A DNA stretch of 64,000 nucleotides from an uncultured virus (IMG/VR IMGVR_UViG_3300042540_001084) (Duplodnaviria > Heunggongvirae > Uroviricota > Caudoviricetes): IMG/VR virus record IMGVR_UViG_3300042540_001084; one strand, given 5' to 3'. Below the pieces are notes generated by a model. The model made no database searches, was not told the DNA's origin, and worked only from the letters and a program-made list of their open reading frames with translations. The position numbers and the translations under genes are program-made. The stretch's first letter is position 1. Every line of letters starts with the position of its first letter. This document shows, one piece after another, positions 6,118-55,791 of the stretch.

Positions 6118-6118
6118 C

Positions 6119-8039: not shown

Positions 8040-8104
8040 TTATTGCAGGTCCAAGTATTTAGAAAATTATTCTACCCAAATGTATATTTATTAAGAAAAA
8101 TTAA

Positions 8105-33576: not shown

Positions 33577-34163
33577 AATTTTTCTATAATTTCTTTAAGT
33601 TCTTTAATAGTATTAATATTGTGTGTTATATCAATATCTGTATTATAGACAGTGTTGAATTTTATCACAATTTTATCAGTAGGGTGATTTAATAATAAGT
33701 TAGGATTAGCCGTAAGTAAAACATCTATTTCATCCCACATAGAATTAGTGGTGATTTCTGAGTAGAATTTTATCTTTTCTACTAAACATCCAAACTTAGA
33801 TAAGAAGAATAATGTTGCGGGTTTTGATTTACCAATCTCATCAGATACAATAATAATTTCGTTATTATCTCTGTGGTCAGTATAAAACTCGTTGAAGTCG
33901 TTAAATGATGTCATTTCTACGGACGGAGCGTGACCAAATATTTCCATAGTATGTTCTCTATACAAGAAGTCATAAACCTCATCCTCATCTTTGAATTTCA
34001 GGTGTTTTGAAATATCTAAAGTTTCTACGGGTGATAACACTTCATAAGGTTCTTTTTCCTCATCAGTGATAAATGGATTATCAACATAGAACTTAGTATA
34101 GACCTGTTCAATTCTTAAAAGAGTGTCTCTAAGAACTCCGTTAACATCAATTGCGATTCTCAT
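33573..34163 (-). CDS. HAD-fold protein, 5'(3')-deoxyribonucleotidase-like (degenerate DxN motif)
   Basis: MRIAIDVNGVLRD; C-terminal ..YN. Confidence 0.6.
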   Translation of the reverse strand: MRIAIDVNGVLRDTLLRIEQVYTKFYVDNPFITDEEKEPYEVLSPVETLDISKHLKFKDEDEVYDFLYREHTMEIFGHAPSVEMTSFNDFNEFYTDHRDNNEIIIVSDEIGKSKPATLFFLSKFGCLVEKIKFYSEITTNSMWDEIDVLLTANPNLLLNHPTDKIVIKFNTVYNTDIDITHNINTIKELKEIIEKL

Positions 34164-34164
34164 T

Positions 34165-34899
34165 TTAATCTTCGTATCTTTTTAGTATTTTGGTAATCAA
34201 AGGATTTCTCACAACATCAGTATCTTTGAACTCGTGAGTTCCGATGTTATCTAAATCTGAGAATCTTTTCATCGCGTCCCACAAACCTGAGTGTGTTTTA
34301 TCTTTGTATCGGTCAGTTTGTTCTAAGTCACCTGAGATAAAGAATTTGGAGTTAAACCCAATTCTTGTCAAAAGCAATTTCATTTGATTGGGGGTTGCGT
34401 TCTGAGCTTCTTCAAAGATTAGAATTGAGTTGTCAATATTCATACCTCTCATATAAGCCAATGCGAATACTTCAATCGCTTCAATATCTTTTAATTTTTC
34501 ACGTGCGTCTTTACCGATAATTTTGTTTAAAAGGTAATAACTTGGGAAGATATATGGGTCAAGTTTCTCTTCAACATTACCCGGTAAAGAACCCAGTTTT
34601 TCTTCAGCTTCAACCGCTGGTCTAACAATGATTATCTTTTCGTAAGGTGTACTAGGGTCAGCTAATAGGTCAATAGCCGCTTTCATTGCTATGTAACTTT
34701 TACCCACACCTGCAGGACCCGAACAAATTGTGATTTCAGATGTTTTTAATTTTTCGTAATACAACTTCTGACTTTCACTTAGAAATTTTTCTTTTGTTTG
34801 TCTTTTTATGATTGTTGAAATCAGTTCCTTTTTAGTTCTTGGTGAACCACCATACTCAGGAGTTGGTGTTGGGTTGTTTGTTTTTTTCTTCATCCTCAT
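34165..34899 (-). CDS. phoH: PhoH-family ATPase
   Basis: GPAGVGKS, RPAVEAEEKLGSLPG, AYMRG, EEAQN, GDLEQTD, DVVRNPL. Confidence 0.93.
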   Translation of the reverse strand: MRMKKKTNNPTPTPEYGGSPRTKKELISTIIKRQTKEKFLSESQKLYYEKLKTSEITICSGPAGVGKSYIAMKAAIDLLADPSTPYEKIIIVRPAVEAEEKLGSLPGNVEEKLDPYIFPSYYLLNKIIGKDAREKLKDIEAIEVFALAYMRGMNIDNSILIFEEAQNATPNQMKLLLTRIGFNSKFFISGDLEQTDRYKDKTHSGLWDAMKRFSDLDNIGTHEFKDTDVVRNPLITKILKRYED

Positions 34900-35036
34900 T
34901 ATTTTATACGTTCTCGTTCAATCGGGTATTCACCTAATTTTCTTTTGTAGATAGTTTTTCCTTTATCAGGACTTTCATAAATGTATGGTTTGTCCTCGGT
35001 TTGTTTTTCCGGTTTTTTTGGTTTTTTTTCTGACAT
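34899..35036 (-). CDS. Small hypothetical protein (45 aa; ...PYIYESPDKGKTIYKRKLG...), missing from the ORF track
   Basis: Fills the gap exactly, with TAATG overlaps to gmd and phoH. Confidence 0.75.
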   Translation of the reverse strand: MSEKKPKKPEKQTEDKPYIYESPDKGKTIYKRKLGEYPIERERIK

Positions 35037-36016
35037 TATAGTTGTTTTGAAAAATGGTTATACCAATATTCAACCATTTCATCTAACATTGACTCAAATG
35101 TATATTCAGGTTTCCAACCAAGTATTGTTCTAGCCTTTGTAGAATCTCCCTTAAGATATTTTAATTCTTCAGGTCTGATGAAAATTGGATTTTGTGTTAC
35201 ATAGTCTTCATAGTTCATATTCATACTATCAAAAACATATTTTGTCATATCTCTTACAGAGTGGGTTTGCATTGTTGATACAACAAAGTCTTCAGGTGTT
35301 TCGTGATTCATAATTAAATGCATTGCTTTAACATAATCTTTTGAGTGACCCCAATCTCTGTATGAGTCTAAATTCCCTAATTCTAATTTTTTCTCAAGAC
35401 CAAGTTTAATTTGTACTGCGGTTTTAACAACTTTGTTAGTTACAAAATTTGAACCTCGTCTTGGTGACTCGTGATTAAATAATATTCCGTTAGTTGCGTG
35501 TAATCCGTATGCCTTTCTATAGTTTCTAACGATAGAATAACCAAACAATTTTGAACATCCATAAGGTGATACTGGATGCATCGGGGTGGTTTCTCTTTGA
35601 AACCCATCCTCATCAACACTATTACCAAACATTTCAGAAGATGACGCTTGATAAAATTTAGCGTTTGGTACAACTCTTCTGTATGACTCTAAAACATTCA
35701 ATACACCAAGAGCATTTGTTTTAACCGTAAATTGTGGCATATCAAAAGATATTCTTACGTGACTTTGTGCACCAATGTTATAAATTTCATCAGGTCTTAC
35801 TTTTTCTAAAATTCTATCAATAGAACTTTCATCCAATAAGTCTCCATAATGTGTTGTTATTTGGTCTGTTAAGTGATAAACTCTTGAATCTTGGTTCTCG
35901 GACATAGAATTTCTTCTAACCATACCGTGAACTTCATAACCCATAGTTAATAAGTGTTCCGCCAAGTAACTACCGTCTTGACCATTAATTCCTGTTATAA
36001 AAGCTACTTTACTCAT
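35036..36016 (-). CDS. gmd: GDP-mannose 4,6-dehydratase
   Basis: ITGINGQDGSYL, AQSHV, QASSSE, YGCSK, LFNHESPRRG, RDWGH. Confidence 0.95.
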   Translation of the reverse strand: MSKVAFITGINGQDGSYLAEHLLTMGYEVHGMVRRNSMSENQDSRVYHLTDQITTHYGDLLDESSIDRILEKVRPDEIYNIGAQSHVRISFDMPQFTVKTNALGVLNVLESYRRVVPNAKFYQASSSEMFGNSVDEDGFQRETTPMHPVSPYGCSKLFGYSIVRNYRKAYGLHATNGILFNHESPRRGSNFVTNKVVKTAVQIKLGLEKKLELGNLDSYRDWGHSKDYVKAMHLIMNHETPEDFVVSTMQTHSVRDMTKYVFDSMNMNYEDYVTQNPIFIRPEELKYLKGDSTKARTILGWKPEYTFESMLDEMVEYWYNHFSKQL

Positions 36017-36609
36017 TTTTTAAAAATATCCATTTCTGTTAAATCTGGCCAATCTGTAACCACCCATTTTTTTGGTTCTGTGTTGATTGCGTCCTCTAGT
36101 TTTGATAAACCCAATTTTGCGGTTTCTGGCGTCATATAATAGTGATAACCAAAAGTGTCGATGTTTTGGTCTCTCCAAGGTATCATAGGTAATCTACCGT
36201 CGTATGACATTTTTTTAATTTGATTTTTATCGTGTTCGTTATCTAATAATATAACCCCACCTCTACCTAAAGATAAGTGTTTTTGGTATTGAAAACTAAT
36301 TCCCATAAATGTATCTGGGATATAAGAATCTTTTTTCCATAAAACAGCGGCATCAATTACTCTGTCTGTAATGTAGTAGTAATCTTGCCAAGCTTCGATT
36401 CTCCATTCTAAACCAATGTTTAATTTATTAGCTAAAAATGGGATGGATAAGTATGTTCTTGTTGGCACTGAAATTTCTTTAGTTTCCAAATATCTAAGAA
36501 CAACTTCAATCCCGTGTGTGCAACTATCAAAAGCAACTGCGAACGGTGCTCCAAAAAACTCCGCAACTTTACTTTCAAATTCCTGAACAATTTCAAATGT
36601 TGGTGTCAT
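36013..36609 (-). CDS. Short DegT/DnrJ/EryC1/StrS PLP-dependent sugar aminotransferase
   Basis: DSCTHG, IDAA, SFQYQKHL..G.GG (PLP lysine), G..Y.MT; only 198 aa. Confidence 0.75.
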   Translation of the reverse strand: MTPTFEIVQEFESKVAEFFGAPFAVAFDSCTHGIEVVLRYLETKEISVPTRTYLSIPFLANKLNIGLEWRIEAWQDYYYITDRVIDAAVLWKKDSYIPDTFMGISFQYQKHLSLGRGGVILLDNEHDKNQIKKMSYDGRLPMIPWRDQNIDTFGYHYYMTPETAKLGLSKLEDAINTEPKKWVVTDWPDLTEMDIFKK

Positions 36610-36610
36610 A

Positions 36611-37147
36611 TTACTTTTTTTTACATTCTACGTTTAAACTAATTAAAGTTCCGTGTTCTTTATCCATATGTGGTAGATATGCTTGAGAATGGTCATCAAT
36701 GTGTGAATGTTCAGTCTCCCTCCAATCATACACTGATACATCCGTAAAACCATTGTTTTCTAACAAAGTCTTTAATGATTTAAAGTCATAACAAGTTCTA
36801 TGATATATTTTGGTGTCACCCATATCCATTCTACCGTATAGAGGGCCTAAAAATGATTCTAATTCACCACCAACAATATAGAGATGAACCATTGATTCAA
36901 AATCAGGAACCGCCAATCTTAAAACGCCATTTGGTTTTAAAACTCTTAACCATTCTTTCAATACCTCAATAACTTCAATTCTATCAAAGTATTCCAAAGT
37001 GTGTGATGAATAAATTAAATCAACTGTATTTTCTTCAAAATCTAATTTTGTAATATCGTGACTTTTAATGTGTGGGAAGTCCGCCCCATCGATGTGAATC
37101 CATTCAGGACCAAAATCTCTTTTACCGCAACCAAGATGTAATTTCAT
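36611..37147 (-). CDS. Class I SAM-dependent methyltransferase
   Basis: KLHLGCG, IYSSHTLEY, RVLKPNG.LRLAVPD; ATG at 37147. Confidence 0.85.
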   Translation of the reverse strand: MKLHLGCGKRDFGPEWIHIDGADFPHIKSHDITKLDFEENTVDLIYSSHTLEYFDRIEVIEVLKEWLRVLKPNGVLRLAVPDFESMVHLYIVGGELESFLGPLYGRMDMGDTKIYHRTCYDFKSLKTLLENNGFTDVSVYDWRETEHSHIDDHSQAYLPHMDKEHGTLISLNVECKKK

Positions 37148-37148
37148 A

Positions 37149-37562
37149 TTATTCAATAAATGTTTTATCTAATTTTTGACCTTCATATGGACCTGTTTTA
37201 TATTCATAAACCAAAGTGTTGTCTTCCAAAATATAGTAATTATGTCCACCTTCTAAAGTGAAACTGGCATCACCCACATTTAATATTGGTTCGGCAATTA
37301 TAGTGTCATCAATATCATAAAAAATACATTTTACAGAGCCTTGGATTACAATCCAACTTTCTTGGGCGATTACATTACGAGTTCTTTCTTTCCAAATGTG
37401 TTTATGTGGTTTAAATGTTTTACCTTCCTCCATATTCAAGATTGAACATTGGATAAAGTTTTCTTCAGAGATTACATCTTGTCTTCCTGGAGTGATGTCA
37501 TCTTTTCTAACAATTAAATGAAGAAGTTTAGATGGGTCTACTTTTGAATATATTTTTTCCAT
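37149..37562 (-). CDS. WbuC-like cupin protein
   Basis: PHKH...QE....QG...GGH...E.K.GPY. Confidence 0.7.
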   Translation of the reverse strand: MEKIYSKVDPSKLLHLIVRKDDITPGRQDVISEENFIQCSILNMEEGKTFKPHKHIWKERTRNVIAQESWIVIQGSVKCIFYDIDDTIIAEPILNVGDASFTLEGGHNYYILEDNTLVYEYKTGPYEGQKLDKTFIE

Positions 37563-38404
37563 TATAATACTTTTTTATTGTCAATCGCCATTTTTATTGT
37601 TGGCCAAATATTATATTTGTTTAGGACTAAGTGTCTTGCTTCTTTTAGATTTTCAATATTTTCTTCTCTATAGTTTGAATTTGCAATTTCAAGTATTTGA
37701 CTAATTGCATAATCGATACCTTTAGAATCATCAAATTCGATATAACTACCTTTTGGAAAAAACTTACTAATTTGTTTACAACCTGAATAAATTGGCATTG
37801 TAAGTAATAAAATTGGGTCAACAAATTTTTCACTGAAATAAAAATCAGTTTTACCGTTTTCAATAACTAAGTTGTAATTGTAATCAATTAAACCTTGTTT
37901 TTTATCTCTAGGAGGTAGGGCGTGACCTGGTCTGATATGTCCGTAAACATCAACATCTTGTGAATAATTCGTCATCAATTTTGTAACCAATTCTTTTCTA
38001 AAATGATGATATTCTGTCATAATTCTACCAGAATCTATTGCGGATAGTTTTTTAGTCTTTGTTGGGTTTAAATCAAACAACTCATTAAATGGGTGTTTAA
38101 CCCACCAAGTCGATGGTAACCAACAATTACCTGCTTCGTGATGATAGTTCCCATATGAATTTCTTTTCCATTCATAATACGCAACTGTTACGTGTTTAGG
38201 TTCTCTACCAAAATAAATTACTTTGGAGTCATCAACATCCTCAGGGGTCCCATCTTGCACGATAATAAAATCCGACTCTGATTTATTTAATGTGTATGTA
38301 ACATCTTCCCAAACACCTAAACTATTTGGGGTTTGGTCAATAATGTTTCTTACTAATGATTCTGAGTCTCCCCAAGAAGTATTTGCAAAATATATTTTTT
38401 TCAT
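37562..38404 (-). CDS. GT10-like (fucosyltransferase-type) glycosyltransferase
   Basis: K..GL.DYNYNLVIEN...YFSEKFVDP......PIYSG. Confidence 0.75.
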   Translation of the reverse strand: MKKIYFANTSWGDSESLVRNIIDQTPNSLGVWEDVTYTLNKSESDFIIVQDGTPEDVDDSKVIYFGREPKHVTVAYYEWKRNSYGNYHHEAGNCWLPSTWWVKHPFNELFDLNPTKTKKLSAIDSGRIMTEYHHFRKELVTKLMTNYSQDVDVYGHIRPGHALPPRDKKQGLIDYNYNLVIENGKTDFYFSEKFVDPILLLTMPIYSGCKQISKFFPKGSYIEFDDSKGIDYAISQILEIANSNYREENIENLKEARHLVLNKYNIWPTIKMAIDNKKVL

Positions 38405-38441
38405 TTTAAAAATATAAAAGGTTTTATTTTAAAAAAAAGAA

Positions 38442-39803
38442 TTACTTGTTCAAGTATGTTACTAAATCCTCCGGTGTCCCAAGACCCCACATTTTGTCTA
38501 TACGGTAATTTATCACTTTTTTACCGTCAGGTATTGCCTCATTAAAGACAGGACACACATAAAATTCATTATTAACTCTTACGTTCTTACTAATCATTTG
38601 TTCTGCATATTTTACATAATCAGAACCTTTCTTCCAGTAATATATTCCTACAGTTGCTATGTCAGAAATTGGATTCTTTTCGGCAACTTCACTAACAAAA
38701 CCAAATTCATTTAATTTTGCAAAAGACCATTTTGGGTGGGTAGATTCGAATGTTACAATACCTCCATCAACATCAGTTTCTTTCATTTTATACATAAACT
38801 CGTTAGAGTCCCACTCAATAAATTGGTCTGAGTTTGCAAGGATTAACGAATCGTCATTATTGATGAATTCTTTGGCTAAAAGGGTGGTACACGCAGCACC
38901 TTCCGTAACACCGTCAACTTCAACTATTTTACAGTTTGGACTGATTAAATTTAATAATGTGTCTAAATTGTATTTTTCTCTGTGTGATTTTTGAACTATG
39001 TAAATAAAGTTCGCATCAAGGTTTAAGTTTTCACTTACAACCTTAATCATTGGTTCACCCTTAACATCTATTAGGGGTTTTGGAAAACTATATCCGGCCT
39101 TTTCAAAACGAGAACCGGCACCCGCCATAGGTATAAGAACATTTAATTTTTTGTCTGACCACTTTGGGCTTTTCATTGTAATATGATTAATCTCACTTAA
39201 TTTATTGTATACATTTTTTGTATTAACTTCATCTGGTGATGACACTCTCATAATTTTTGAATGGGACCTTGATGCTGCTAATAACCCGTATGGAGAGTCC
39301 TCAATAATTAATGTTTGTTCCGGTAAGCATTTCATTTTCGAAATGCAAGTCCAATACATTTCAGGGTGTGGTTTACTATTAATCACATCTTCATTTGATA
39401 TGATAATATCGAAAAACTCAATTATTTGAAGTTTCGATAATACAGTTAAAACCGTCTTTCTAATTGAGTTACTGCAACAGGCGATTTTATACCCATCTTT
39501 AGATAAGTTTTTAAATAACTCGACAATATGTTTTGATGGAACCGTTTCAGTTAATTTCTCGATGGTTAATTTTTGTTTTTCTAACCATATTAAATTATGC
39601 AGGTTAGAATCAAGATTTTTTTCCTTAGTTAAAATATCCAACTTTTGATTTGTTTTTAACCCATCAAATTTACCCAAATGTTCTTCCCAAGGAATTACAC
39701 ATTCAGGTTGATATTTTACGATTGCGTCATTTAATGATTCAAAATGAATATTTTTTGTATCTATTAATACACCATCCAAATCAAAAATTATTAACTTTAT
39801 CAT
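38442..39803 (-). CDS. HAD phosphatase fused to a sugar-phosphate nucleotidyltransferase-like domain
   Basis: IFDLDGVL...KPHP...IEDS; IPMAGAGSRF..PKPLI, VAEK, LGTPEDL; ATG at 39803. Confidence 0.85.
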   Translation of the reverse strand: MIKLIIFDLDGVLIDTKNIHFESLNDAIVKYQPECVIPWEEHLGKFDGLKTNQKLDILTKEKNLDSNLHNLIWLEKQKLTIEKLTETVPSKHIVELFKNLSKDGYKIACCSNSIRKTVLTVLSKLQIIEFFDIIISNEDVINSKPHPEMYWTCISKMKCLPEQTLIIEDSPYGLLAASRSHSKIMRVSSPDEVNTKNVYNKLSEINHITMKSPKWSDKKLNVLIPMAGAGSRFEKAGYSFPKPLIDVKGEPMIKVVSENLNLDANFIYIVQKSHREKYNLDTLLNLISPNCKIVEVDGVTEGAACTTLLAKEFINNDDSLILANSDQFIEWDSNEFMYKMKETDVDGGIVTFESTHPKWSFAKLNEFGFVSEVAEKNPISDIATVGIYYWKKGSDYVKYAEQMISKNVRVNNEFYVCPVFNEAIPDGKKVINYRIDKMWGLGTPEDLVTYLNK

Positions 39804-40228
39804 TTGTATTGTTGAATATAATCTGAACAGACCCCATAACAATCTCCCATATCAAAAGAATTTAGTTCAGGTAAAACACAGATTGATTTTTTTGTTAATT
39901 CTTTATTTGGATAGGTCCAAATAAAACCTTTCGATGTTAAAGTAACATCATCATTTTGATGCCAAAAACAATGTATTTTTTTATTCTTTAACATCTTTTC
40001 GAGAGCTTGAATATTTTTAGCGTGACACCATAATAAATTGCTTTCTAAAAATGTCTCCTCAATTTTGTATTGAGCTTTGTCGTGACCTAAAAAATATTCA
40101 TCATTAACCACCCAAACATCAATCTCACAATTATAACCAAGAGATAAAGACTCAACAATATAATCAGGTGAGTTTTCTCTCTCAGGAATACGACCATTTA
40201 AATTACCTCTATGTGAAATTTTTTTCAT
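39800..40228 (-). CDS. Small PLC-like/GDPD-fold phosphodiesterase
   Basis: ISHRGN, EN.P, EIDVW, LGHD, GVCSD. Confidence 0.75.
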   Translation of the reverse strand: MKKISHRGNLNGRIPERENSPDYIVESLSLGYNCEIDVWVVNDEYFLGHDKAQYKIEETFLESNLLWCHAKNIQALEKMLKNKKIHCFWHQNDDVTLTSKGFIWTYPNKELTKKSICVLPELNSFDMGDCYGVCSDYIQQYK

Positions 40229-40230
40229 AA

Positions 40231-40791
40231 TTAAAATTTAACCATCCAAATGTTATTTGTACCGATGATTACATTAGGAAAAAGTTCATCAACTGCTTGT
40301 TTAACACCACAAGTATGATTCCAATAATCGTGACCTGACATAATTCCACCTTCTCTCATTTTTGGTAACCAAGAAAGAATGTCTTTTTTTACTGACTCAT
40401 AATTATGGTCTGCATCAATAAACACAAAATCCACACTACCATCTTCAAATTGAGCTGCGGCGTCCCAAGTATTACCTTTAATGTCTTTAACAACATCTCT
40501 AACACCGGCATCAATTAAATTTTGATTATAAACATCATAAATATATTTCATTTGTGGTGTTAAATATTCGTTTCCTTCTTTGGTGTGAATGTACGAATCA
40601 TCAAATAAATCAACTCCGTATAGTTCAAATTTGTAAGTTTGTTCTAATAATTTTTTTGCCAAATAAGATAGTGAGTGACCTTTCCAAGTACCTAACTCAA
40701 CTAAAGTTTCATATTTTTTACTAGCAATTTCATTGTAAAATTCTTGGTAATTAAACCAATTTTCAGAATGTTGTATATCTTTAATTTCCAT
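40231..40791 (-). CDS. Class I SAM methyltransferase (Methyltransf_24-like)
   Basis: VELGTWKG.S, VDFVFIDADHNYE, GG...GHDY. Confidence 0.85.
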   Translation of the reverse strand: MEIKDIQHSENWFNYQEFYNEIASKKYETLVELGTWKGHSLSYLAKKLLEQTYKFELYGVDLFDDSYIHTKEGNEYLTPQMKYIYDVYNQNLIDAGVRDVVKDIKGNTWDAAAQFEDGSVDFVFIDADHNYESVKKDILSWLPKMREGGIMSGHDYWNHTCGVKQAVDELFPNVIIGTNNIWMVKF

Positions 40792-41002
40792 CTTTTTTTT
40801 CTATCAACCCAAATTTTATGTATTTGTACCAAACTCTTTCGTGTAAAAAGTAGATTACTGGTTTAAATAATAATTCACCAACACCCATTAAGGAAGCTAA
40901 TTTTATATCCGCTCCAAAAGAATATGCTACTAACACTGTTGTAAGTGTCCCAATCAAACGGTAACTTATAGTTTTACCAATATGTCTTTTAACGTTTACC
41001 AT
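40781..41002 (-). CDS. DUF2061-like small membrane protein
   Basis: RH..KTISYR..GT..T...YFLHERVW..IKFG. Confidence 0.75.
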   Translation of the reverse strand: MVNVKRHIGKTISYRLIGTLTTVLVAYSFGADIKLASLMGVGELLFKPVIYFLHERVWYKYIKFGLIEKKDGN

Positions 41003-41235
41003 TACTTAACAATTACAACATCACCCTTCCAAATAACTTCAGATGCCATACAAGAGATATGGTGTTTTGTTACCATTTTTTCTCTTGATGGGTCATACAC
41101 CGTATCAATAGTTGTGTGCATGGGTGTTTCTATTAAGATATTTGAACAAGTATGTTCAACACCGTTTATTAAAATTCTCCAATACATGTGATTATCATCA
41201 CAAACCGTATTGTATCTAATTTTTACATCAATCAT
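41002..41235 (-). CDS. Hypothetical protein
   Basis: Coupled ORF in the operon. Confidence 0.7.
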   Translation of the reverse strand: MIDVKIRYNTVCDDNHMYWRILINGVEHTCSNILIETPMHTTIDTVYDPSREKMVTKHHISCMASEVIWKGDVVIVK

Positions 41236-41636
41236 AATTTACCTTCTTTTTTCATTTGTTCACGAATTTTAGTTGCTGAAATATCTGCAATTTGCTGTGG
41301 TGGTATACGCTCAATAATATCGTAACCAACTCCTCTTCCAAATTCTATTGAGCAGATATCTGGAATAACCATAACTTTTACCTTTCCTTCCTCACATTCA
41401 TTTGAGTAATGTTCCATAATATTTTGTCTAACCTCTTCGGCAGCAAATGGATTTTTTTCGTCAGGGGCAATGTCTCTAATACAAATTAAAACATTCTTAC
41501 CTTCATCCATTGCTTGTTTAAAAAGTTCTTGGTGTCCAGGATGGAGTGGTTGCCATCTACCAACAAACATTGCGTATTGTCCATCTTTAGCGGGTAAGGA
41601 CGACCCTACGTGAATTTTTTTAGTCCAATTTTCCAT
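41232..41636 (-). CDS. HIGH-superfamily nucleotidyltransferase; candidate minimal ATP sulfurylase
   Basis: GRWQPLHPGH, GRGVGY, ISATKIRE; located next to cysC. Confidence 0.65.
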   Translation of the reverse strand: MENWTKKIHVGSSLPAKDGQYAMFVGRWQPLHPGHQELFKQAMDEGKNVLICIRDIAPDEKNPFAAEEVRQNIMEHYSNECEEGKVKVMVIPDICSIEFGRGVGYDIIERIPPQQIADISATKIREQMKKEGKL

Positions 41637-41637
41637 T

Positions 41638-41979
41638 TTATTCAAATCCTTTATCTCTATTTAAGTTTATACCAATTGCTCTTTCACCTTCTTTATCAGG
41701 GTCCATATCATTTATTAGATATCTTGGACCTCTTTCGATACCCATAACCAATTGATTGTATTTTATATTATTATCTTTTAATTCAAATTCAGTGTGGCTT
41801 CTCAAATTTTCAGGTCTTGCGGTAGTTAAAACAATATGATGACCTTCATAAAACCATTCATTTAATTTTTCAGCAACTGATGTTATTACTTCAGGTTTTG
41901 TGACTGGTATATCAGTAAACTTTCTATACTTAAAAATTGTGCCATCTATGTCACAAAAATAGGTGTTAAATTTCTTCAT
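41638..41979 (-). CDS. Small capless HAD phosphatase
   Basis: FCDIDGTI, LTTAR, LIND. Confidence 0.7.
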   Translation of the reverse strand: MKKFNTYFCDIDGTIFKYRKFTDIPVTKPEVITSVAEKLNEWFYEGHHIVLTTARPENLRSHTEFELKDNNIKYNQLVMGIERGPRYLINDMDPDKEGERAIGINLNRDKGFE

Positions 41980-42425
41980 ATATCTAATTCATTAATAATG
42001 TAAACCAATGAACCTTCTGGTGATTCATCTGTTGTATCAACATCAACATAATTTTCAGTTGGTGCTTCGTAATCTGCGACGTGGTAATTTTCACGTCCTC
42101 TTTCCTCAGTTGTGTGTACATATAATTCTACCATATTTTCACCCATTCTTTCCTTAAAAGAATCTCGAACTTCTTTATATGGTGCAACAACACTAACAAC
42201 AACGTCAAATCCTTTGTGACTACAAAAATGTGCCAAGTTTTGTGCGAATGTTATGTTTTTAATTCTACCTTCCCTTGAATAGTCTTTATTCTGAAAGATT
42301 TCTCTAATGTCATCACCATCAATGTGAATGACATTTTTTTTGTAATTTGATTCTAAATAACCTTTTAAATGGTTAGATAAAACCGTTTTTCCGTGGCCTG
42401 GCTGGCCTGTAAACCAATAAATCAT
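41976..42425 (-). CDS. cysC: Adenylyl-sulfate kinase
   Basis: WFTGQPGHGKT, IDGDDIR, YSREGRIKNI, V.PY...R, YEAP. Confidence 0.85.
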   Translation of the reverse strand: MIYWFTGQPGHGKTVLSNHLKGYLESNYKKNVIHIDGDDIREIFQNKDYSREGRIKNITFAQNLAHFCSHKGFDVVVSVVAPYKEVRDSFKERMGENMVELYVHTTEERGRENYHVADYEAPTENYVDVDTTDESPEGSLVYIINELDI

Positions 42426-42428
42426 AAT

Positions 42429-43028
42429 TTAGTATTTGAATTTAAATAAATTTATATCATATTCATAAATCTCTGACACCTTACGTATCAAATCTTCAGT
42501 ATAATAATCTTTGTAATTGTTGCTTTTTCTATCACTAAAGTTTACCTTTTCTAAATCAGGAATTAACTTATTAAACTCCTCATCAGTTTCTAAAGTTTCG
42601 TGATAAAAAACTTTATCAACTAAAATATTTTTTTCATTATCAGATATCCACACATATTGAGGTGCCCAACCTTGATGTTTTAAAGACGACCTGTCTTCAT
42701 ACAACATATTAACACACTCCTCAAATGTTTTATCTTTCAATGTATGGTAATCGAAATGAGCCGCGCCAACATTCGTGTCACTTACGTGGTGCCAATAACT
42801 TTTTTCCATACGAGCATACTCATAATTGGAAACGACCCTATCCCAAGGATTTCTAATGACGGCAAATTTGAAATATTCGTCCCATTTTTTAGGTTCTTTA
42901 TTTTTAATTTCTTTTGCCGAATCGTGACCACCCATATAAAATCTTGCAATTTTACTATTAGTAATTGCAGTACCAGCGTTTTTTGGTATATGGACAAAAA
43001 TTGTTTTTAGGTTATCTGATATTGGCAT
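42429..43028 (-). CDS. Sulfotransferase family 2
   Basis: FVHIPKNAGT (5'-PSB) and RNPWDRVVS.Y (3'-PB). Confidence 0.85.
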   Translation of the reverse strand: MPISDNLKTIFVHIPKNAGTAITNSKIARFYMGGHDSAKEIKNKEPKKWDEYFKFAVIRNPWDRVVSNYEYARMEKSYWHHVSDTNVGAAHFDYHTLKDKTFEECVNMLYEDRSSLKHQGWAPQYVWISDNEKNILVDKVFYHETLETDEEFNKLIPDLEKVNFSDRKSNNYKDYYTEDLIRKVSEIYEYDINLFKFKY

Positions 43029-43031
43029 ATT

Positions 43032-45008
43032 TTACAATATACTATTTAATAGGTTTATATCGTTAATATCTTTCGGTTCGTTCCTCTTTTCTTTCATATC
43101 TTTTATTATTTTTGGGGAAACAAATTTGACCCCTCTCGAATAGAAATGATTAACTGGATTGTGAATTATTTCATCATAATTAAGTTCATATCTACCAATA
43201 CCATATGAATTATGAGATTGTATATCATCACTTACTTTAATTAACGGTGCTGATTTTGTGTGGATATAATCTAAGTCTTTACCTTCTCTAAGACCATAGA
43301 TTGATAGTATTGAACTTGCGGTTACCGCATATTCATCAATATCTAAATTATTATCCTCAATATATTTTTTAAAACTATTTAATAAACCATCAAATTTTCT
43401 GTAATCTGATGGGGTACTATCACACATAAATTTTATTGAGTTCTGATTAAATACACATTGTGAAAGTCTGATAGTTTGGTCGTGAGTGTCATTTATATGA
43501 ACAGAATGTTTTCCTATATTAAAACGATTCCTAATTTCTTCTTTAGCTCTTACAGACTGCTCAACACTATCAAATTCAACTAAGAAGATTGTTACAGGTG
43601 CGTTTTGTGTAAAACACAAACCTTCTTTCTGTCTATAACCAATGTAATTGTTTTGATGATTACCAGCCCATTGTTCACCGGCATATAACTCTCTCATAAA
43701 GTTTAGAGGACCGTTCTTTTCTAATTTTATTTGTTTGTAATAAAATACAGAACCGTATTTTTTTAGAATAGAAAGAGGTACTTCGATATTCCCTCCTGTT
43801 GATGGAAAAACGCTAACAATATAAGTGTTATTTTTTAATTTTGCGTATTCAAGAGCAACTCTATCACATAGAGTTTCACTTAAATTTAATTTTTTGAATT
43901 CACCCTCCCAAGAACAAATTAGTTGACCGTCTTTAATACTTGTAGATTCTTCAGTAAAAACATTCTTATTTAAAGCTAAACTCGCGGCCAATCTGTGAGC
44001 ACCATTAACAATATATTTATCATTCACCACAGGGATTTTTGATATTTGTGGGTCAAATCCATTCTCACTTATATTAGTGATAATATCTTTAAAAGTATTG
44101 TCAAATACCTCGAATGAATTTTTTGATGGGTTTGAAATTTCAAAACAATTATTCCATTTTATTAAATGTTCTTTGTATAAATTTTTGTACGTATCTGTCT
44201 GATAATTTTTAATTATAGATTGTGCGTAAAGATATTTAACAATCACATCAAATCTTTGATTTGTAATTAAATCGTGTGGGTTTGTTGATTCGGAACCTGA
44301 TAATCTTTTGTATGGTTTCTTATTCCTAATTATTGACGTTGTATTATTCACAACTGACATATTAACTTTATGGTCATTTAACGGGTTTGATTCGTTATAG
44401 ACGTATAAAATTTCAGGTATGAACTTAAAGTGTTTTTCGCCTGACATCTCAACCATTGGAAACATAAATGATAAATCCCCAGCAACCGACCAATATTCGC
44501 CATTAGAATCCATTAAATCAGACTGCTCAATTTTTTTCCATAACCAAGATTTCCAAGTTCTTAAATGCGTTAGGGTAAAAGTTTGTTTTCTAATGTCTAA
44601 TAAATTATGTGGTTTTTTTGCAAAACCAAGTCTACCATCGTGATACTTAAATGAACCACTTGTCATCCAAATATCAGGGTTTTTATAAACATCGTCAATA
44701 AACCCTAATACATTTGAATTAGGTAACCAATCATCACCATCTACTTCAACACAAACCTCATCATCAGGTATGTTTAAACCTCTGATTACTTGGTCGTAAT
44801 TTCCTGGTTGATACATCTTTTTTGTATTTTCAATCAATACAAATCTATCGTCACCCTTAATAGTCTCTTTGATTATTGACACTGTATTGTCGGTAGACAT
44901 ATCATCAGTAATATAACAAGTAAAGTTTTTAAAACGTTGACTCATTATACTCAGTAAAGACCTTTCTACAAAATTTTCACAATTATATGTTGTTGTAAGA
45001 ACTATCAT
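43032..45008 (-). CDS. GT2 fused to ParB/Srx-like and nucleotidyltransferase-like domains
   Basis: DDMSTD and VDGDD (GT2); IVNGAHRLAA; SSILSIYGLREGKDLDY. Confidence 0.7.
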   Translation of the reverse strand: MIVLTTTYNCENFVERSLLSIMSQRFKNFTCYITDDMSTDNTVSIIKETIKGDDRFVLIENTKKMYQPGNYDQVIRGLNIPDDEVCVEVDGDDWLPNSNVLGFIDDVYKNPDIWMTSGSFKYHDGRLGFAKKPHNLLDIRKQTFTLTHLRTWKSWLWKKIEQSDLMDSNGEYWSVAGDLSFMFPMVEMSGEKHFKFIPEILYVYNESNPLNDHKVNMSVVNNTTSIIRNKKPYKRLSGSESTNPHDLITNQRFDVIVKYLYAQSIIKNYQTDTYKNLYKEHLIKWNNCFEISNPSKNSFEVFDNTFKDIITNISENGFDPQISKIPVVNDKYIVNGAHRLAASLALNKNVFTEESTSIKDGQLICSWEGEFKKLNLSETLCDRVALEYAKLKNNTYIVSVFPSTGGNIEVPLSILKKYGSVFYYKQIKLEKNGPLNFMRELYAGEQWAGNHQNNYIGYRQKEGLCFTQNAPVTIFLVEFDSVEQSVRAKEEIRNRFNIGKHSVHINDTHDQTIRLSQCVFNQNSIKFMCDSTPSDYRKFDGLLNSFKKYIEDNNLDIDEYAVTASSILSIYGLREGKDLDYIHTKSAPLIKVSDDIQSHNSYGIGRYELNYDEIIHNPVNHFYSRGVKFVSPKIIKDMKEKRNEPKDINDINLLNSIL

Positions 45009-45059
45009 ATTAATTTTTATACTAAAATAATAATTTTTTAGTAAAAATAAATAAGGACT

Positions 45060-46679
45060 TTAAACTACCGAATAAAGATATTCATCAATTACTTGTTTAG
45101 TAACATTTTCCGAATAGTATTTATCCACATCAGTTGGGGGTTCGTGATACTCAATATCCATTATATTCCCTTGAGCATCGACTTTATAAATCCAACCTGG
45201 TTTACCTGAAATCCAACCTTCAATAGTTGTTCTCCCTAATTGAATACCTGCAGTTTCTTTACACTTTGAAACATATTTCTCAACCGACCAAGTCGCAGGA
45301 TAATATTCTACGTGAGAGTGACTTTTTAATTCGTTTAAATAAATTGATTTATCTTCACCAACAACCACTAATTTCAAACCCCTTTCTTTAGTTTTCTCAA
45401 CTAAATCAAAAATTGTATTTTTTCTCAAATAATCTAAAGTACCGACAAACAGAACATAATCCTCACTTGTTGTCGATGATTTAAATTTTGTATTATCAAT
45501 TGGGTTGTAAATTACTTTAATTTTTTCCTCGTCGATTGAGTGTTCAGTAATCAAATAATCTTTAATTTCAGGTCTGATTGCAATGTATTTTTTAATAGAT
45601 TCGTGAACATATGGAATTTCCAAATCAATTACTTCAGAATGTATTGTGGATATTTTTGGTATGTTTGGATAAAGTCTACAAATATGTTCTGTGATTGGTT
45701 TGTGTTGAGTGTGAATTAAATCTACCATCAATTCTCCAACAGGGTATAGGACATTTGGTTGTGAAATTTCACCATTTTGAAAACTCCACTTTCCATCTCC
45801 TAATTTATAGCCCAAAGGTTCTCTAATTGAATAAACTTTGATACCATCTTTTTTTGCCATATCAGTTAAAGGACCACCAATTTCTGACATAACAGAAACA
45901 TCGTGTCCCATTTTCTTAAGTGACTTGGCTAATTGGTATACATAAAGTTCAGAACCTGTCAATGTTTTAAATGATAAACAAGTAAACAAAATCTTTAATT
46001 TTGTCTTAGGGTCTAATGCCAATTTTTGTGGTAGATGTTGATTGTATTTTTCCTCGAATTTTTTTCGATTTATCTCCCATTGTTCGTTAGTCATACCAAC
46101 TGATTTGTGAGTAATTCTTACGTTATACATAACACCAAGTTTTACACCACTTAAAAAGTTCTCAAAACAAAATGGAATATCGTAGAAGTGAAATCCCTCA
46201 AATTCTTCGACAAAGTTATGATTAATTCTATTCTTATGAACCACTAAAAAAACACCGTCAAGAACAACAACATCATCGATACCGTTTCCTAATGATGTGG
46301 AGTATTTTGATTCCCATTTTTTACCCCCACTTTCGTGATTAACAACACCATACATCTTTCTTCTGTCGGACCACCAAGTACCATTTTCACTCATAAATTT
46401 GGTACCAGCAACACCTAAAATTCCGTAATCTGTTTTTTCAAAATGTTTTAGTATTTTATGATACCATCCAGTACTATCAAAATAGATATCATCGTGACAA
46501 AAGATTACAATATCAGTTTCACTTTCATTTAAAATTTCATTATAAACTTGTGATAGTGATTTTTCACCATTATTAACTTTCTCAATAACCCTAACATTTT
46601 TGGCATAACCTGATGAGGTTTTTAAGTATTCAATAAACTCAGGTTTACTTTCTCGGGTAGAATATCCAATAGTAATCAT
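45060..46679 (-). CDS. Two-domain glycosyltransferase (GT-A + GT-B)
   Basis: FCHDD, GFHFYD; second half TGSELY...GHDV...GRTTIEG. Confidence 0.75.
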   Translation of the reverse strand: MITIGYSTRESKPEFIEYLKTSSGYAKNVRVIEKVNNGEKSLSQVYNEILNESETDIVIFCHDDIYFDSTGWYHKILKHFEKTDYGILGVAGTKFMSENGTWWSDRRKMYGVVNHESGGKKWESKYSTSLGNGIDDVVVLDGVFLVVHKNRINHNFVEEFEGFHFYDIPFCFENFLSGVKLGVMYNVRITHKSVGMTNEQWEINRKKFEEKYNQHLPQKLALDPKTKLKILFTCLSFKTLTGSELYVYQLAKSLKKMGHDVSVMSEIGGPLTDMAKKDGIKVYSIREPLGYKLGDGKWSFQNGEISQPNVLYPVGELMVDLIHTQHKPITEHICRLYPNIPKISTIHSEVIDLEIPYVHESIKKYIAIRPEIKDYLITEHSIDEEKIKVIYNPIDNTKFKSSTTSEDYVLFVGTLDYLRKNTIFDLVEKTKERGLKLVVVGEDKSIYLNELKSHSHVEYYPATWSVEKYVSKCKETAGIQLGRTTIEGWISGKPGWIYKVDAQGNIMDIEYHEPPTDVDKYYSENVTKQVIDEYLYSVV

Positions 46680-46689
46680 ATCTTATTTT

Positions 46690-47298
46690 TTAAATTCCTG
46701 TTGAACCAAATCCATTTGAACCACGTTCTTTATCCTCAAATTCATCTTCCACCAAAGAAACTTTTTTACCTGATTCTACAGGACATAAAACGCCTTGAGC
46801 AACCTTCTGTCCTTTTTCAACGGTAACCGCCATATTATTCATATTCATTAGAATAACTTTGACCTCACCTGTGTATCCTTGGTCTACAGTTCCAGGACTA
46901 TTCAAAACCATAAGTCCTTGTTTAATTGCCAACCCACTTTTAGTTCTTACTTGAATTTCAAAACCTTCAGGAATATCAAATGATAATCCTGTTGGAACTA
47001 ACTTACGTTCAAATGGTAAGAAATGGATTTCTTCTACACTGTGTAAATCAAAACCTGAATCGGTTTCATATGCGTACTTTGGGTCTACAGCATCTTCGTG
47101 TAGTTTTTTATAGAACAATGGTTTTTTTGTTAAGGCGTCCCCTAATAACTTTTCAAATTCGTCAAAAGGTAAACCTAAACGGGATTCAATTTCGGACATC
47201 AAATCCTCATCATCATTCTCGTCTTTAAAATTTTTAATTTCGTCGAAGAGTCTTTTAATCTCATCGTTTAATTCTGGGTCTGATTCAAAATCAATCAT
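46690..47298 (-). CDS. dut: Trimeric dUTPase with an acidic N-terminal extension
   Basis: SGFDL, KSGLA, GTVDQGYTGE, RGSNGFGSTG. Confidence 0.93.
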   Translation of the reverse strand: MIDFESDPELNDEIKRLFDEIKNFKDENDDEDLMSEIESRLGLPFDEFEKLLGDALTKKPLFYKKLHEDAVDPKYAYETDSGFDLHSVEEIHFLPFERKLVPTGLSFDIPEGFEIQVRTKSGLAIKQGLMVLNSPGTVDQGYTGEVKVILMNMNNMAVTVEKGQKVAQGVLCPVESGKKVSLVEDEFEDKERGSNGFGSTGI

Positions 47299-48014
47299 AT
47301 AAGTGCTTTTAATTTTTGAACAACATCAATTAATACCTGAACATCTCTTTCACAATATTCGGCAATTTCTTTTAACATACCTTTATTCCAATACGCGTCG
47401 TGAACCTTAGCCCCTGTAACCTCACCTTCTTTAGGAGATGGAACGTCCATACAGGTACACATAAGGTCCAAAGAACCAATTGCTGTGTATGCACCGTATT
47501 GCCAAATTTCTTTGGTGTCAATCGCTCTAATCTCCCAAGGTTTTGTGTCATAAGACGGTAAGATTGATGGTGGCATTAATCCGTTGATAATCATTCTTTT
47601 TGCCATCATAGGAATATCAAAGTTCTTAAGGTTATGTCCACACAACCAAAATTCTAATCTACCACAACGGTCAAGTAACTTTTGACAATCCACCAACAAG
47701 TGTTGTTCATTATCGTTGTGGAATGTTTGTTTCTTAATATCACCATTTTCCATAACAAACGCAACACTGATACAAACAATCTTTGCAAATTCAGGAACCA
47801 AAGCTGCTCGTGAAGAAAACACAAGATTTTTTTGTTCATCTTCGTTTTTACCAATCAGTTGGTCTTCAGGGAACCTTTTCAAAAACCAATCAAAATACTT
47901 ATCAAATTGTTCGGCAATTTTTGGGTATTCCTTTTTGCAATGGTCATAGTCTTTTGTTAGTCCGACAGTCTCAATGTCAAGAAAAAGAATTTTAGGTAAT
48001 GGAATCTTAATCAT
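47295..48014 (-). CDS. DEDD 3'-5' exonuclease (PolB-exo related)
   Basis: FLDIET, GHNLKNFDIP, YCERDV. Confidence 0.85.
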   Translation of the reverse strand: MIKIPLPKILFLDIETVGLTKDYDHCKKEYPKIAEQFDKYFDWFLKRFPEDQLIGKNEDEQKNLVFSSRAALVPEFAKIVCISVAFVMENGDIKKQTFHNDNEQHLLVDCQKLLDRCGRLEFWLCGHNLKNFDIPMMAKRMIINGLMPPSILPSYDTKPWEIRAIDTKEIWQYGAYTAIGSLDLMCTCMDVPSPKEGEVTGAKVHDAYWNKGMLKEIAEYCERDVQVLIDVVQKLKALI

Positions 48015-53883: not shown

Positions 53884-55791
53884 ATGGCAATTGGAATTAG
53901 AATTTTAAGTAATAATTTAAGTGGTCAAACCGCTGAAGTAACGTATCTACCTGCTTCGGGGGGTACAATAGATTTGGGTACGCAAGTAATACCATTTAAT
54001 TATATTTCATCATACTATTATGGTGTGTTTGAAATGTACATTCCAACATATGACTACACTTACACTTTAGAAGTTACGGTTCCACCAGTAAGCCCAACAC
54101 CTACGCCTACGGTAACTAGTACGAGTACGCCAACAATGACTGTTACACCAACAACAACACCTACTAATACAACAACTAATACGCCGACGCCAACAAATAC
54201 TGCAACTCAAACACCTACAAACACACAGACACCTACAAACACACAGACACCTACACCTACTCAAACACCAACGTCAACTTTAGGTTCAACCCCAACTCAA
54301 ACTCCAAGTAATACAAATACTCCGACACAAACTCCAACTAATACGGTAACAAATACGCCAACTAACACCGCAACAAATACGCCAACTAATACCGCAACAA
54401 ACACACCAACTAATACTGCGACAAATACGCCAACTAATACCGCAACAAACACACCAACTAATACTGCGACAAACACACCAACTAATACTGCGACAAACAC
54501 ACCAACATCTACACCAACTCAGACACCAACATCTACATTAGGTTCAACACCAACCCAAACACCAACTAATACAGAGACTCCAACACAAACTCCGACACAA
54601 ACACAAACTCCGACACAAACACAAACTCCGACACAAACACAAACACAAACTCCAACCCCAAGTGAACCACCAAGATATGCGTTCTCAGTTATCAAAGGTG
54701 GTACATATGATGAGGCTTGTGGTAATTATGGAACATCAACTACCATATATGGTATTGAAACTATATTCGACCAAAACAATTTCTTCTACAATTCTCCGTC
54801 AGGTCCAGTAACCGTTGATATGACAGGTTACTACCAACAATCTGCACAAGTTGTTGAGTTGGATTCATCAGGTAATGAAACAGGTGGGTATTCAATATGC
54901 GTAACACTTACACCTACACCTACCCAAACACCAACCCAAACTCAAACTCCAACTCAAACTCAGACTCCAACTAACACAGCAACAAATACACCTACCCAAA
55001 CTCAAACTCCGACTAATACCGCAACCAACACACCTACACCAACTCAAACTCCAACTCAGACTCAGACTCCAACAAACACAGCAACAAATACCCCAACTAA
55101 TACTGCAACAAATACACCAACTCAGACACCAACTAATACTGCAACTAACACTCCAACTAATACCGCAACAAATACACCTACTCAAACACCAACAAATACT
55201 CCAACAAATACCGCAACTCAAACACCAACAAACACTGCCACCAACACACCTACTCAGACACCAACTAATACTGCTAGTAATACGCCAACACCAACTCAAA
55301 CACCAACAAATACTGCAACAAATACACCAACCAATACCTCAACTCAAACTCCGACTCAAACTCCGACTAACACGGCAACACAAACACAGACACCAACTAA
55401 TACCGCAACACAGACACCAACAAACACGGCATCAAATACTCCAACACAAACCCCAACTAATACAACAACACAAACACAGACTCCAACACAAACACAGACT
55501 CCAACTAATACCGCAAGTCCAACACCAACAAATACAAATACACCGTCAGTAACACCTACTGACACACCTCAAGGGGCTAAAAAATATTTAGTACAAGATT
55601 GTTCTTCAGGATTTGTTGGTCAGTTTGGTATTTATGATACTTTACAGACGGGTAAAATCTATAAATTAGATGTAATTAATGATGGTGTTTCTTGTTACAC
55701 GATAATATCAACAACAACTGCAACAGTAACCACATTCGCAGACGTTATATCGGGTCCTTGGAATAATTGTATAACTTGTTTAAATAGTTAA
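53884..55791 (+). CDS. Thr/Pro-rich mucin-like modular protein
   Basis: Three small domains separated by long TPTNTATN/TPTQTQ linkers. Confidence 0.85.
   Translation: MAIGIRILSNNLSGQTAEVTYLPASGGTIDLGTQVIPFNYISSYYYGVFEMYIPTYDYTYTLEVTVPPVSPTPTPTVTSTSTPTMTVTPTTTPTNTTTNTPTPTNTATQTPTNTQTPTNTQTPTPTQTPTSTLGSTPTQTPSNTNTPTQTPTNTVTNTPTNTATNTPTNTATNTPTNTATNTPTNTATNTPTNTATNTPTNTATNTPTSTPTQTPTSTLGSTPTQTPTNTETPTQTPTQTQTPTQTQTPTQTQTQTPTPSEPPRYAFSVIKGGTYDEACGNYGTSTTIYGIETIFDQNNFFYNSPSGPVTVDMTGYYQQSAQVVELDSSGNETGGYSICVTLTPTPTQTPTQTQTPTQTQTPTNTATNTPTQTQTPTNTATNTPTPTQTPTQTQTPTNTATNTPTNTATNTPTQTPTNTATNTPTNTATNTPTQTPTNTPTNTATQTPTNTATNTPTQTPTNTASNTPTPTQTPTNTATNTPTNTSTQTPTQTPTNTATQTQTPTNTATQTPTNTASNTPTQTPTNTTTQTQTPTQTQTPTNTASPTPTNTNTPSVTPTDTPQGAKKYLVQDCSSGFVGQFGIYDTLQTGKIYKLDVINDGVSCYTIISTTTATVTTFADVISGPWNNCITCLNS
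54340..54660 (+). repeat. Coding tandem repeats (24-nt TPTNTATN units; 18-nt actccgacacaaacacaa x3)
   Basis: Visible direct repeats; plus strand strongly A/C-rich. Confidence 0.8.

Follow-up and report, generated by a model that had tools for sequence, protein, structure and literature searches.

A 64,000-nucleotide stretch of DNA from an uncultured member of the Caudoviricetes (IMG/VR record IMGVR_UViG_3300042540_001084), hereafter the window, carries on its minus strand six close-packed open reading frames (ORFs) between positions 40781 and 43028. This cassette combines a sulfotransferase, a protein of the adenosine 5'-phosphosulfate (APS) kinase family and a very small nucleotidyltransferase of the HIGH superfamily (hereafter NTase), the last of which is the main subject of this analysis. 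The spacing between neighbouring frames ranges from 3-nt gaps to 11-nt overlaps, and the six members are the following:

42429-43028, minus strand: Sulfotransfer_2 carbohydrate-type sulfotransferase (199 aa; PF03567), the presumed consumer of 3'-phosphoadenosine 5'-phosphosulfate (PAPS)
41976-42425, minus strand: short, lidless, CysC-like APS kinase (149 aa; PF01583)
41638-41979, minus strand: candidate small, cap-less phosphatase of the haloacid dehalogenase (HAD) type (113 aa; sub-threshold Pfam and PHROG matches)
41232-41636 (ATG start) or 41232-41645 (TTG start), minus strand: mini HIGH nucleotidyltransferase (134 or 137 aa; PF01467), candidate ATP sulfurylase
41002-41235, minus strand: 77-aa all-beta protein, putative cassette accessory (no Pfam or PHROG family)
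40781-41002, minus strand: DUF2061 small membrane protein (73 aa; PF09834), conserved third member of the phage trio

The NTase frame opens with a TTG codon, yielding 137 aa, and an ATG three codons on (41636) yields the 134-aa form that corresponds to the start of most relatives. The source phage is T4-like, with a gp20 portal, a gp23 capsid protein, a T4-type terminase and a prohead protease encoded in the window, which belongs to a viral record of 141,693 bp with an estimated completeness of 47%. A preliminary description of this DNA had reported a contiguous set of sulfation genes and the absence of cysDN and full-length sat from the window. Both observations stand, since the ORFs occupy the positions given for them and a record-wide profile search yielded neither Sat nor CysD nor CysH. 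More precisely, a six-frame search of the 141,693-bp record detected no Sat above cut-off, the sole match being the NTase itself with 12.9 bits, and no PF01507 (CysD/CysH) match, although a record that is 47% complete leaves absence from the whole phage unproven. Two related cassette-bearing phage records, with estimated completeness of 100% and 99%, also lack a Sat above cut-off and a PF01507 gene. The 2.2-kb cassette is found nearly identical in metagenomes of lakes or fresh water, in 22 runs from 2016-2024, 15 of them marked as possible sources, and none of the 24 sequencing runs listed for it is an RNA run. A megablast search of positions 38000-46000 against deposited phages returned zero matches, and a scan of positions 34000-47500 for promoters and terminators was uninformative, with 56 and 4 hits against 70.7 and 5.5 in shuffled sequence, at or below expectation.

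The sulfotransferase and the kinase both score above the Pfam cut-offs of their families. The sulfotransferase matches PF03567 with 48.5 bits (cut-off 22; 1.7e-12), residues 4-198 of its 199 aligning to profile positions 6-252, and it also matches PHROG 3347, annotated as 'Galactose-3-O-sulfotransferase', at 1.4e-10. The kinase scores 64.3 bits against PF01583 (cut-off 21.1), and all 17 of its 17 sequence matches in the PDB are APS kinases or APS-kinase domains, the best of them at 8.3e-11. It falls below the NCBIfam equivalog cut-offs (TIGR00455, 65.5 against 138.7; PRK05541, 78.6 against 127). The P-loop, the DGD and GR..N motifs and the residues P82/R87 are retained, and about 14 lid residues of the canonical kinases are absent. 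In the alignment that shows this, the kinase of a Marine Group III (MGIII) archaeon is equally short, and the NTase family is found paired with short as well as canonical kinases.

The NTase passes the PF01467 (CTP_transf_like) and TIGR00125 models with 35.9 bits (cut-off 21) and 38.2 bits (cut-off 27.7), respectively. The preliminary description had noticed the HPGH and ISATKIRE motifs in this protein and proposed from them a minimal Sat-type ATP sulfurylase. The motifs are indeed present in the translation and fall on columns whose conservation across 50 diverse relatives is 90% or more (H35, G37, H38, S123, T125, I127 and R128). R30, Q32, R57, P66, P95, G103 and R104 are conserved to the same extent, and among these R57 and G103-R104 are the family's own conserved residues. 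The proposal of a minimal Sat is not supported. The NTase fails the Sat model PF01747 (17.4 bits against a cut-off of 24.3), and its nearest solved relatives by sequence are NadM-type and archaeal nicotinamide mononucleotide (NMN) adenylyltransferases (NMNATs), with a single-sequence E-value of 1.4e-4. A profile built from the 50 relatives reaches the NMNAT 1f9a at 9.6e-15, and the 60 matches listed, of 72 obtained with this profile in the PDB, include no Sat. The protein 'Crov588', top PDB sequence match of the NTase, was discarded as spurious, as it consists of six weak matches to a repeat protein. It is important to remark that the NTase also lies far under the cut-offs of the NMNAT equivalogs (TIGR01527, 27.8 against 181.2; NF002243, 34.7 against 127).

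The same order of relatives emerges from the predicted structure. The AF2 model of the NTase is of high confidence (pLDDT 93.1, pTM 0.85). With this model, Foldseek places NMNAT first and phosphopantetheine adenylyltransferase (PPAT) next, over just 76-80 aligned columns, and contains no Sat in its top 50. In a fold search independent of Foldseek, the NMNAT 1f9a comes with Z 9.8 (111 aligned residues, rmsd 3.2), PPAT with 9.6 and NadM with 9.2 and 8.8. Comparison with the Sat catalytic domain, suggested in the preliminary description, gave lower scores, the Thermus enzyme (1v47_B) appearing at rank 11 with Z 7.5 (114 aligned residues, rmsd 3.7) and the yeast and Aquifex enzymes (1j70 and 2gks) both giving Z 5.9. 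As NMNAT outranks Sat in sequence and fold searches alike, the NTase does not appear to be a truncated Sat, and its ancestry appears to be NMNAT-like.

When aligned with a genuine archaeal NMNAT (185 bits) from one of the genomes studied here, each mini-enzyme lacks a block of 25 residues immediately after the shared IPDI strand. The same gap is seen against 1f9a, where positions 82-92 of the NTase profile correspond to residues 75-110. We take the missing block to participate in binding the nicotinamide-ribose part of NMN. Where the block is missing, the mini-enzymes retain only a conserved G-R-x-V/A-G-Y loop, and after strand 3 a conserved 'IRD' replaces the 'VGS' of NMNAT. Two related phage records carry a second PF01467 gene that outscores the mini-NTase (G159, C1:253544-253816, 40.5 bits; G161, C1:75460-75735, 54.7 bits), located in the former about 2 kb from it.

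The NTase is very strongly linked to APS kinase. Its family is large, with 5,522 proteins of near-equal length at E <= 1e-3, and accounts for 1,187 cluster representatives in a library of 1.84 billion. Linkage was counted in the best 80 of 269 confirmed viral loci and in the best 80 of at least 558 cellular loci, the latter from a genome scan with a profile of 12 alignment rows. Among the 80 viral loci, the NTase has a CysC-like neighbour in 77 by tblastn and in 78 by profile hidden Markov model (HMM), the two loci left without a kinase in the HMM count being loci that end less than 320 nt upstream. On the cellular side, 66 of 80 loci have an APS-kinase-like gene in the same orientation at no more than 600 nt from the NTase (22 of 24 outside the Pelagibacteraceae and 44 of 56 within them), and five of the 80 contain in-frame kinase/NTase fusions. 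Fusion is also frequent among longer relatives of the NTase, 30 of 50 being joined to PF01583 in one or the other domain order, and the fused kinase can be a full-scoring canonical one (P0162, 230.7 bits; P0171, 207.2; P0200, 188.7). A local HMM count gave 22 kinase-NTase and 8 NTase-kinase proteins among 116 well-covered representatives (34 of 150 having been dropped), and the existence of both orders therefore implies at least two independent fusions. Fusion events were also counted on a quick tree of the 116 rows, and the resulting 20 changes are too poorly resolved to be used. PHROG 10255 matches the window kinase with its own first 89 positions and the NTase with its positions 134-229; therefore, a fused form exists in phages too. 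Two of the fusion proteins are named simply 'adenylyl-sulfate kinase' by their sources. The preliminary description had named lack of linkage to cysC in other genomes, together with a preference for NMN, pantetheine-P or glycerol-P, as what would refute its proposal and had recommended an analysis of neighbourhoods and fusions; as these counts of adjacency (78/80 viral, 66/80 cellular) and fusion (30/50) reveal, the linkage is instead widespread.

A divergent branch of the NTase family was recovered from four viral loci. In one of them the genes for sulfotransferase, kinase and NTase are consecutive. In another (L162, ~2962-6284) the NTase is followed by a PRK-type kinase, an unassigned ORF, a transporter of the PHO4/PiT family with 126.9 bits and, with 197.4 bits, a canonical APS kinase. 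Bacillus subtilis CysP is a PiT-family sulfate permease whose operon also includes sat and cysC, and L162 may possibly be a sulfate uptake-plus-activation operon in a phage. In the third locus a 794-aa protein with a Sulfotransfer_1 domain lies directly upstream of the NTase, and the fourth has only a DegT aminotransferase and a portal gene as neighbours.

Eight genomes that carry the NTase were searched for other genes of sulfate activation and use. Five are Marinimicrobia of about 1 Mb, and the others are a complete Pelagibacter chromosome (1.5 Mb), a Nomurabacteria genome of the Candidate Phyla Radiation (CPR) and the MGIII archaeon. None of the eight contains Sat, none contains CysD, and none has a CysN above cut-off, the matches being translation-GTPase-like and reaching at most 194.8 bits against 336.1. 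APS kinase is present in all eight, at about 100 nt or less from the NTase in the four genomes with both coordinates (G002, G044, G072 and G080). PAPS_reduct was matched in one of the eight, weakly (30.6 bits). Sulfotransferases are present as well, with Sulfotransfer_5 in six, Sulfotransfer_3 in seven and Sulfotransfer_1 in seven of the eight genomes, and the Pelagibacter chromosome alone has eight Sulfotransfer_1 matches. Searches for these three families gave no match in the CPR genome, alone among the eight.

The presumed consumers of PAPS accompany the pair in phages as well. Directly upstream of the kinase, a Sulfotransfer_3/1 gene is found in 44 of the 80 viral loci. In a Marinimicrobia locus, Sulfotransfer_5 (164 bits), a canonical APS kinase (225 bits) and the NTase stand together within a Wzy/polysaccharide locus. 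In total, three families of PAPS-dependent sulfotransferases adjoin the pair: Sulfotransfer_2, Sulfotransfer_3/1 and Sulfotransfer_5. The converse view was obtained by taking a Sulfotransfer_3-type gene as anchor and examining the best 80 of at least 553 loci. Sixty-one of these phage loci possess kinase and NTase, 11 the kinase alone and 8 neither gene, and none has the NTase without the kinase. This nested pattern is the one predicted from pathway order, provided that the kinase alone can use what the NTase makes. Of the 19 loci without the NTase, four with the kinase only and two with neither gene were annotated; none of the six has a canonical sulfurylase in its stead, and they therefore provide no evidence of displacement. 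The phages concerned presumably use APS or PAPS of the host.

Taken together, these observations suggest that the NTase is probably an undescribed ATP sulfurylase, derived from NMNAT, that feeds PAPS synthesis for the phage sulfotransferase. Judged from sequence, the cassette as a whole would likewise probably constitute a self-contained module for sulfate activation and sulfation. To our knowledge, just two enzyme types, Sat and CysDN, start sulfate activation. With somewhat less assurance, the balance leaning slightly in its favour, the family may be regarded as a third class of ATP sulfurylase, distributed in many aquatic phages and in streamlined plankton (SAR11, Marinimicrobia, marine archaea and some CPR). 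In the proposed mechanism, an NMNAT-derived NTase that has lost the 25-residue segment would take sulfate as acceptor and form APS from ATP. The adjacent lidless kinase would, as expected from its family, convert APS into PAPS and so pull the unfavourable first reaction. The sugar that then receives sulfate from the Sulfotransfer_2 enzyme would be a product of the neighbouring glycan genes. This order of steps from APS through PAPS to a sulfated glycan is the one put forward in the preliminary description. DUF2061, the HAD protein and the 77-aa protein would act as accessories, and in a bolder extension of the model DUF2061 is the part in the membrane through which sulfate reaches the enzyme. 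In the literature searched, which did not extend to subscription journals, neither an enzyme nor a cassette of this kind is described.

Comparison with known systems places the proposed enzyme more precisely. Archaeal and NadM-type NMNATs (TIGR01527, NF002243; 1f9a, 1ej2, 2qjo, 2qjt) are its nearest relatives by sequence and fold and have the GR(F/W)QPxHxGH, NP(F/Y/W) and IS(G/A)TxIR motifs in common with it, but the NTase lacks the 25 residues after IPDI, carries 'IRD' for 'VGS' and a conserved G-R loop, and has an APS kinase rather than NAD-salvage genes as its genomic partner. Sat (PF01747; 1v47, 1j70, 2gks) belongs to the same HIGH superfamily, bears HxxH and ISxT-type motifs, is also adjacent or fused to APS kinase and catalyses the reaction proposed here. 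Unlike Sat, the NTase fails the Pfam model, is devoid of extra domains and has an apparent NMNAT-like origin; in size it is about one third of a canonical Sat. In bifunctional PAPS synthases, Sat-CysC fusions (human PAPSS1, 1x6v; Aquifex, 2gks) and CysN/CysC fusions, a sulfurylase module is likewise fused or adjacent to an APS kinase, whereas in the NTase family the putative sulfurylase module is an NMNAT-like domain of 110-135 aa, found in both orders, and the phage kinase is short and lidless.

Two further systems offer precedents for the organization of the cassette. With nodPQ and nodH, a rhizobial cluster of glycan-tailoring genes has a dedicated source of PAPS of its own, NodPQ being of the CysDN/CysC type. 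The phage cassette resembles them in having a private PAPS supply beside a carbohydrate sulfotransferase and glycan-modifying genes, and differs in that its first enzyme comes from another family and in that the cluster resides in a phage. In Campylobacter jejuni, the nucleotidyltransferase Cj1416 and the CysC-like 3'-kinase Cj1415 act on CDP-amidate. Here too a nucleotidyltransferase works with a CysC homologue, and the activated, 3'-phosphorylated donor that results serves to decorate glycans, but the nucleotidyltransferase has another fold and the transferases of the pathway are of other kinds than sulfotransferases, whereas in the phage cassette classical sulfotransferases are the neighbours.

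The Campylobacter route to O-methyl-phosphoramidate, or alternatively the succession of PPAT and dephospho-CoA kinase, is the model for the most serious competing explanation. By analogy, the NTase would activate another small acceptor (phosphoramidate, phosphonate or a different anion) to NDP-X, and the CysC-like kinase would then phosphorylate the 3'-OH. The divergence of the phage kinase, lidless and below equivalog cut-offs, is compatible with such a substrate, as are the fold of the NTase, to which PPAT and NMNAT are equally close (Z 9.6 and 9.8, respectively), and the 33 of 80 viral loci in which no sulfotransferase is recognisable within 5 kb. Nevertheless, members of the NTase family are also fused or adjacent to canonical APS kinases (230.7, 225.4 and 226.4 bits), their recurrent neighbours are PAPS-dependent sulfotransferases of three Pfam families, and genomes with the pair hold sulfotransferases but no other source of APS. 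On this evidence a different acceptor seems unlikely.

Fusion and adjacency demonstrate functional coupling and not the reaction catalysed, which gives room to a second alternative: the NTase could be a partner or regulator of the APS kinase, or perform another adenylyl transfer around PAPS, with APS coming from the host. To judge from the 11 of 80 sulfotransferase-anchored loci that have the kinase alone, some phages can evidently rely on APS of the host, and one genome with a kinase-NTase fusion, discussed below, also has Sat. The family-wide conservation of HxGH and ISxTxIR, which argues for catalysis, and the eight genomes without another candidate source of APS speak against this possibility, to which we give slightly less credit than to a different acceptor. 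Finally, that the NTase serves NAD salvage as an NMN adenylyltransferase, as its best sequence and fold matches (NadM-type and archaeal NMNAT) and the automatic naming of Atlas clusters as 'putative nicotinamide-nucleotide adenylyltransferase' might suggest, is very improbable in view of scores far below the NMNAT cut-offs (27.8 against 181.2; 34.7 against 127), the missing 25-residue segment, the presence of a separate, true archaeal NMNAT in the MGIII genome (185 bits, cut-off 181.2), the lack of NAMPT/NAPRTase (PF04095) in all five phage records searched and a context of sulfation, not of NAD metabolism.

Several observations weigh against an ATP sulfurylase assignment and temper its strength. 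The nearest known enzymes adenylylate NMN or phosphopantetheine, not sulfate; the NTase fails the PF01747 model, and Sat ranks 11th among its fold matches. A CysC homologue of Campylobacter phosphorylates a non-sulfate nucleotide. Linkage is also incomplete: 14 of the 80 cellular loci, 12 of them from SAR11, have no adjacent kinase, and in the divergent viral branch a kinase lies within 3 kb in just two of four loci. In addition, relatedness inflates all these counts, as 56 of the 80 cellular loci are from Pelagibacteraceae and many viral loci are close kin. With three local models, no sulfotransferase was detected within 5 kb in 33 of 80 viral loci; among ten such records, most of them fragments, only two reach the Sulfotransfer_1 cut-off at some other position. 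A search of 10 phage records for Sulfotransfer_2 was negative, a result that says little, the same search having matched no control genome. The ninth genome analysed, the Pyrinomonadaceae G004, carries a canonical Sat (263.7 bits) in addition to a kinase-NTase fusion, and the two are therefore not strictly exclusive. In a sample of 151 Marinimicrobia genomes the NTase is present in 4 and Sat in 56 with an overlap of 0, a separation (0/4 against 56/151) that is suggestive and not statistically decisive, and most of the cellular genomes are incomplete single-amplified or metagenome-assembled genomes.

The remaining members of the cassette are putative accessories. The HAD protein has a DxDGT motif at its start and matches Pfam models below threshold (HAD_PNKP, 21.7 against 27.6; Hydrolase_3, 17.3 against 20.9), PHROG 1238 at 1.6e-9 and the polynucleotide-kinase PHROG 415 at 2.3e-8, and yields no significant sequence match in the PDB. 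It is found in 32 of the 80 related viral loci, and a role as 3'-phosphatase on 3'-phosphoadenosine 5'-phosphate (PAP), whose removal the preliminary description had suggested, or as pyrophosphatase is speculation. The 77-aa protein occurs in 22 of these loci, sometimes between kinase and NTase, and its all-beta AF2 model (pLDDT 89.5) and invariant residues (R7, N9, D14, W19, R20, T41, H58 and H59) define a protein for which no Pfam or PHROG family and no structural relative was found (Foldseek best E 0.38; VIA best Z 2.6). DUF2061 (PF09834, 58.4 bits; cut-off 23.1) is present in 69 of the 80 viral loci against 2 of the 80 cellular ones, and is fused to the NTase in P0145 and P0312. Among 58 longer DUF2061 forms there was no transporter fusion and one NTase fusion. 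That it anchors the enzymes at the membrane or aids the entry of sulfate is likewise speculation.

The cassette is embedded in a region of glycan synthesis, and the window contains a second group of glycosyltransferases and a set of candidate glycan carriers:

35036-46679, minus strand: glycan-synthesis island (GDP-mannose dehydratase, DegT-like protein, methyltransferases, GT10, HAD-NTP transferase, GT2, GT2/GT4), assigned with Pfam
8105-9778, 53884-55791 and 56410-57729, plus strand: Thr/Pro-rich proteins with very long repeats of TPTNT/TPTQT type (28%, 36% and 27% Thr, respectively)
57807-59054, 59058-59795 and 60659-62338: second glycosyltransferase set (PF11397 GlcNAc-transferase, GT25 and HtrL_YibB, respectively)

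The island is close-packed, with all its genes on the strand of the cassette. Its DegT/DnrJ aminotransferase (36013-36609, minus strand) has 198 aa for 360 profile positions and lies directly downstream of a methyltransferase; it may be truncated or represent a short form. Given the surrounding glycan genes, a sulfated phage glycan is a plausible product of the cassette. The Thr/Pro-rich proteins encoded at 53884-55791 and 56410-57729, which share PHROG 15511, stand beside the second glycosyltransferase set. The Thr/Pro-rich proteins are plausible mucin-like carriers of O-glycans and possible targets of sulfated ones. Across other related phages (loci L005-L080), the cassette in many cases has fibre-like proteins with Gly-rich repeats (cluster 6, 28 loci) on one side and genes for tail sheath and tube on the other, and a 291-aa protein without a Pfam family accompanies it (cluster 4, 36 loci). 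These fibre and tail surroundings point to virion-associated targets. The window also encodes a ClpB-like double AAA+ protein (4068-6068, minus strand; AAA_2, 238 bits), PhoH (34165-34899, minus strand) and a dUTPase with an acidic N-terminal extension (46690-47298, minus strand).

The genomic surroundings of some cellular loci are of another kind. In two SAR11 loci on Pelagibacter chromosomes (L159 and L105, ~7560-8342), the gene next to the NTase is APS-kinase-like but truncated (136 aa, 42 bits), with an M24 peptidase, a HalD-like protein, an enoyl-CoA hydratase, GCV_T/DAO and the sulfur-transport genes Sulf_transp and DUF6691 as further neighbours and no polysaccharide locus. In the MGIII archaeon (L096, 4954-9615), the kinase-NTase pair is found amid genes for S-adenosylhomocysteine hydrolase, SAM synthetase and serine hydroxymethyltransferase, that is, in a methyl-cycle context.

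Genome-based metabolic calls rely on Sat and CysDN to decide whether an organism activates sulfate. If the NTase family performs this step, the orphan APS kinases and sulfotransferases of abundant plankton, including those of a complete SAR11 chromosome, of Marinimicrobia and of an MGIII archaeon, would be explained, and the annotation of sulfur metabolism in these three groups would need revision. The NTase is small and looks soluble, which makes the proposal cheap to test. Its confirmation would mean that phages carry the entire route from sulfate to a sulfated product, and glycan sulfation encoded by phages, perhaps directed at virion proteins, would turn into a testable phenomenon. Moreover, plankton now scored as unable to activate sulfate would make PAPS and sulfated glycans.

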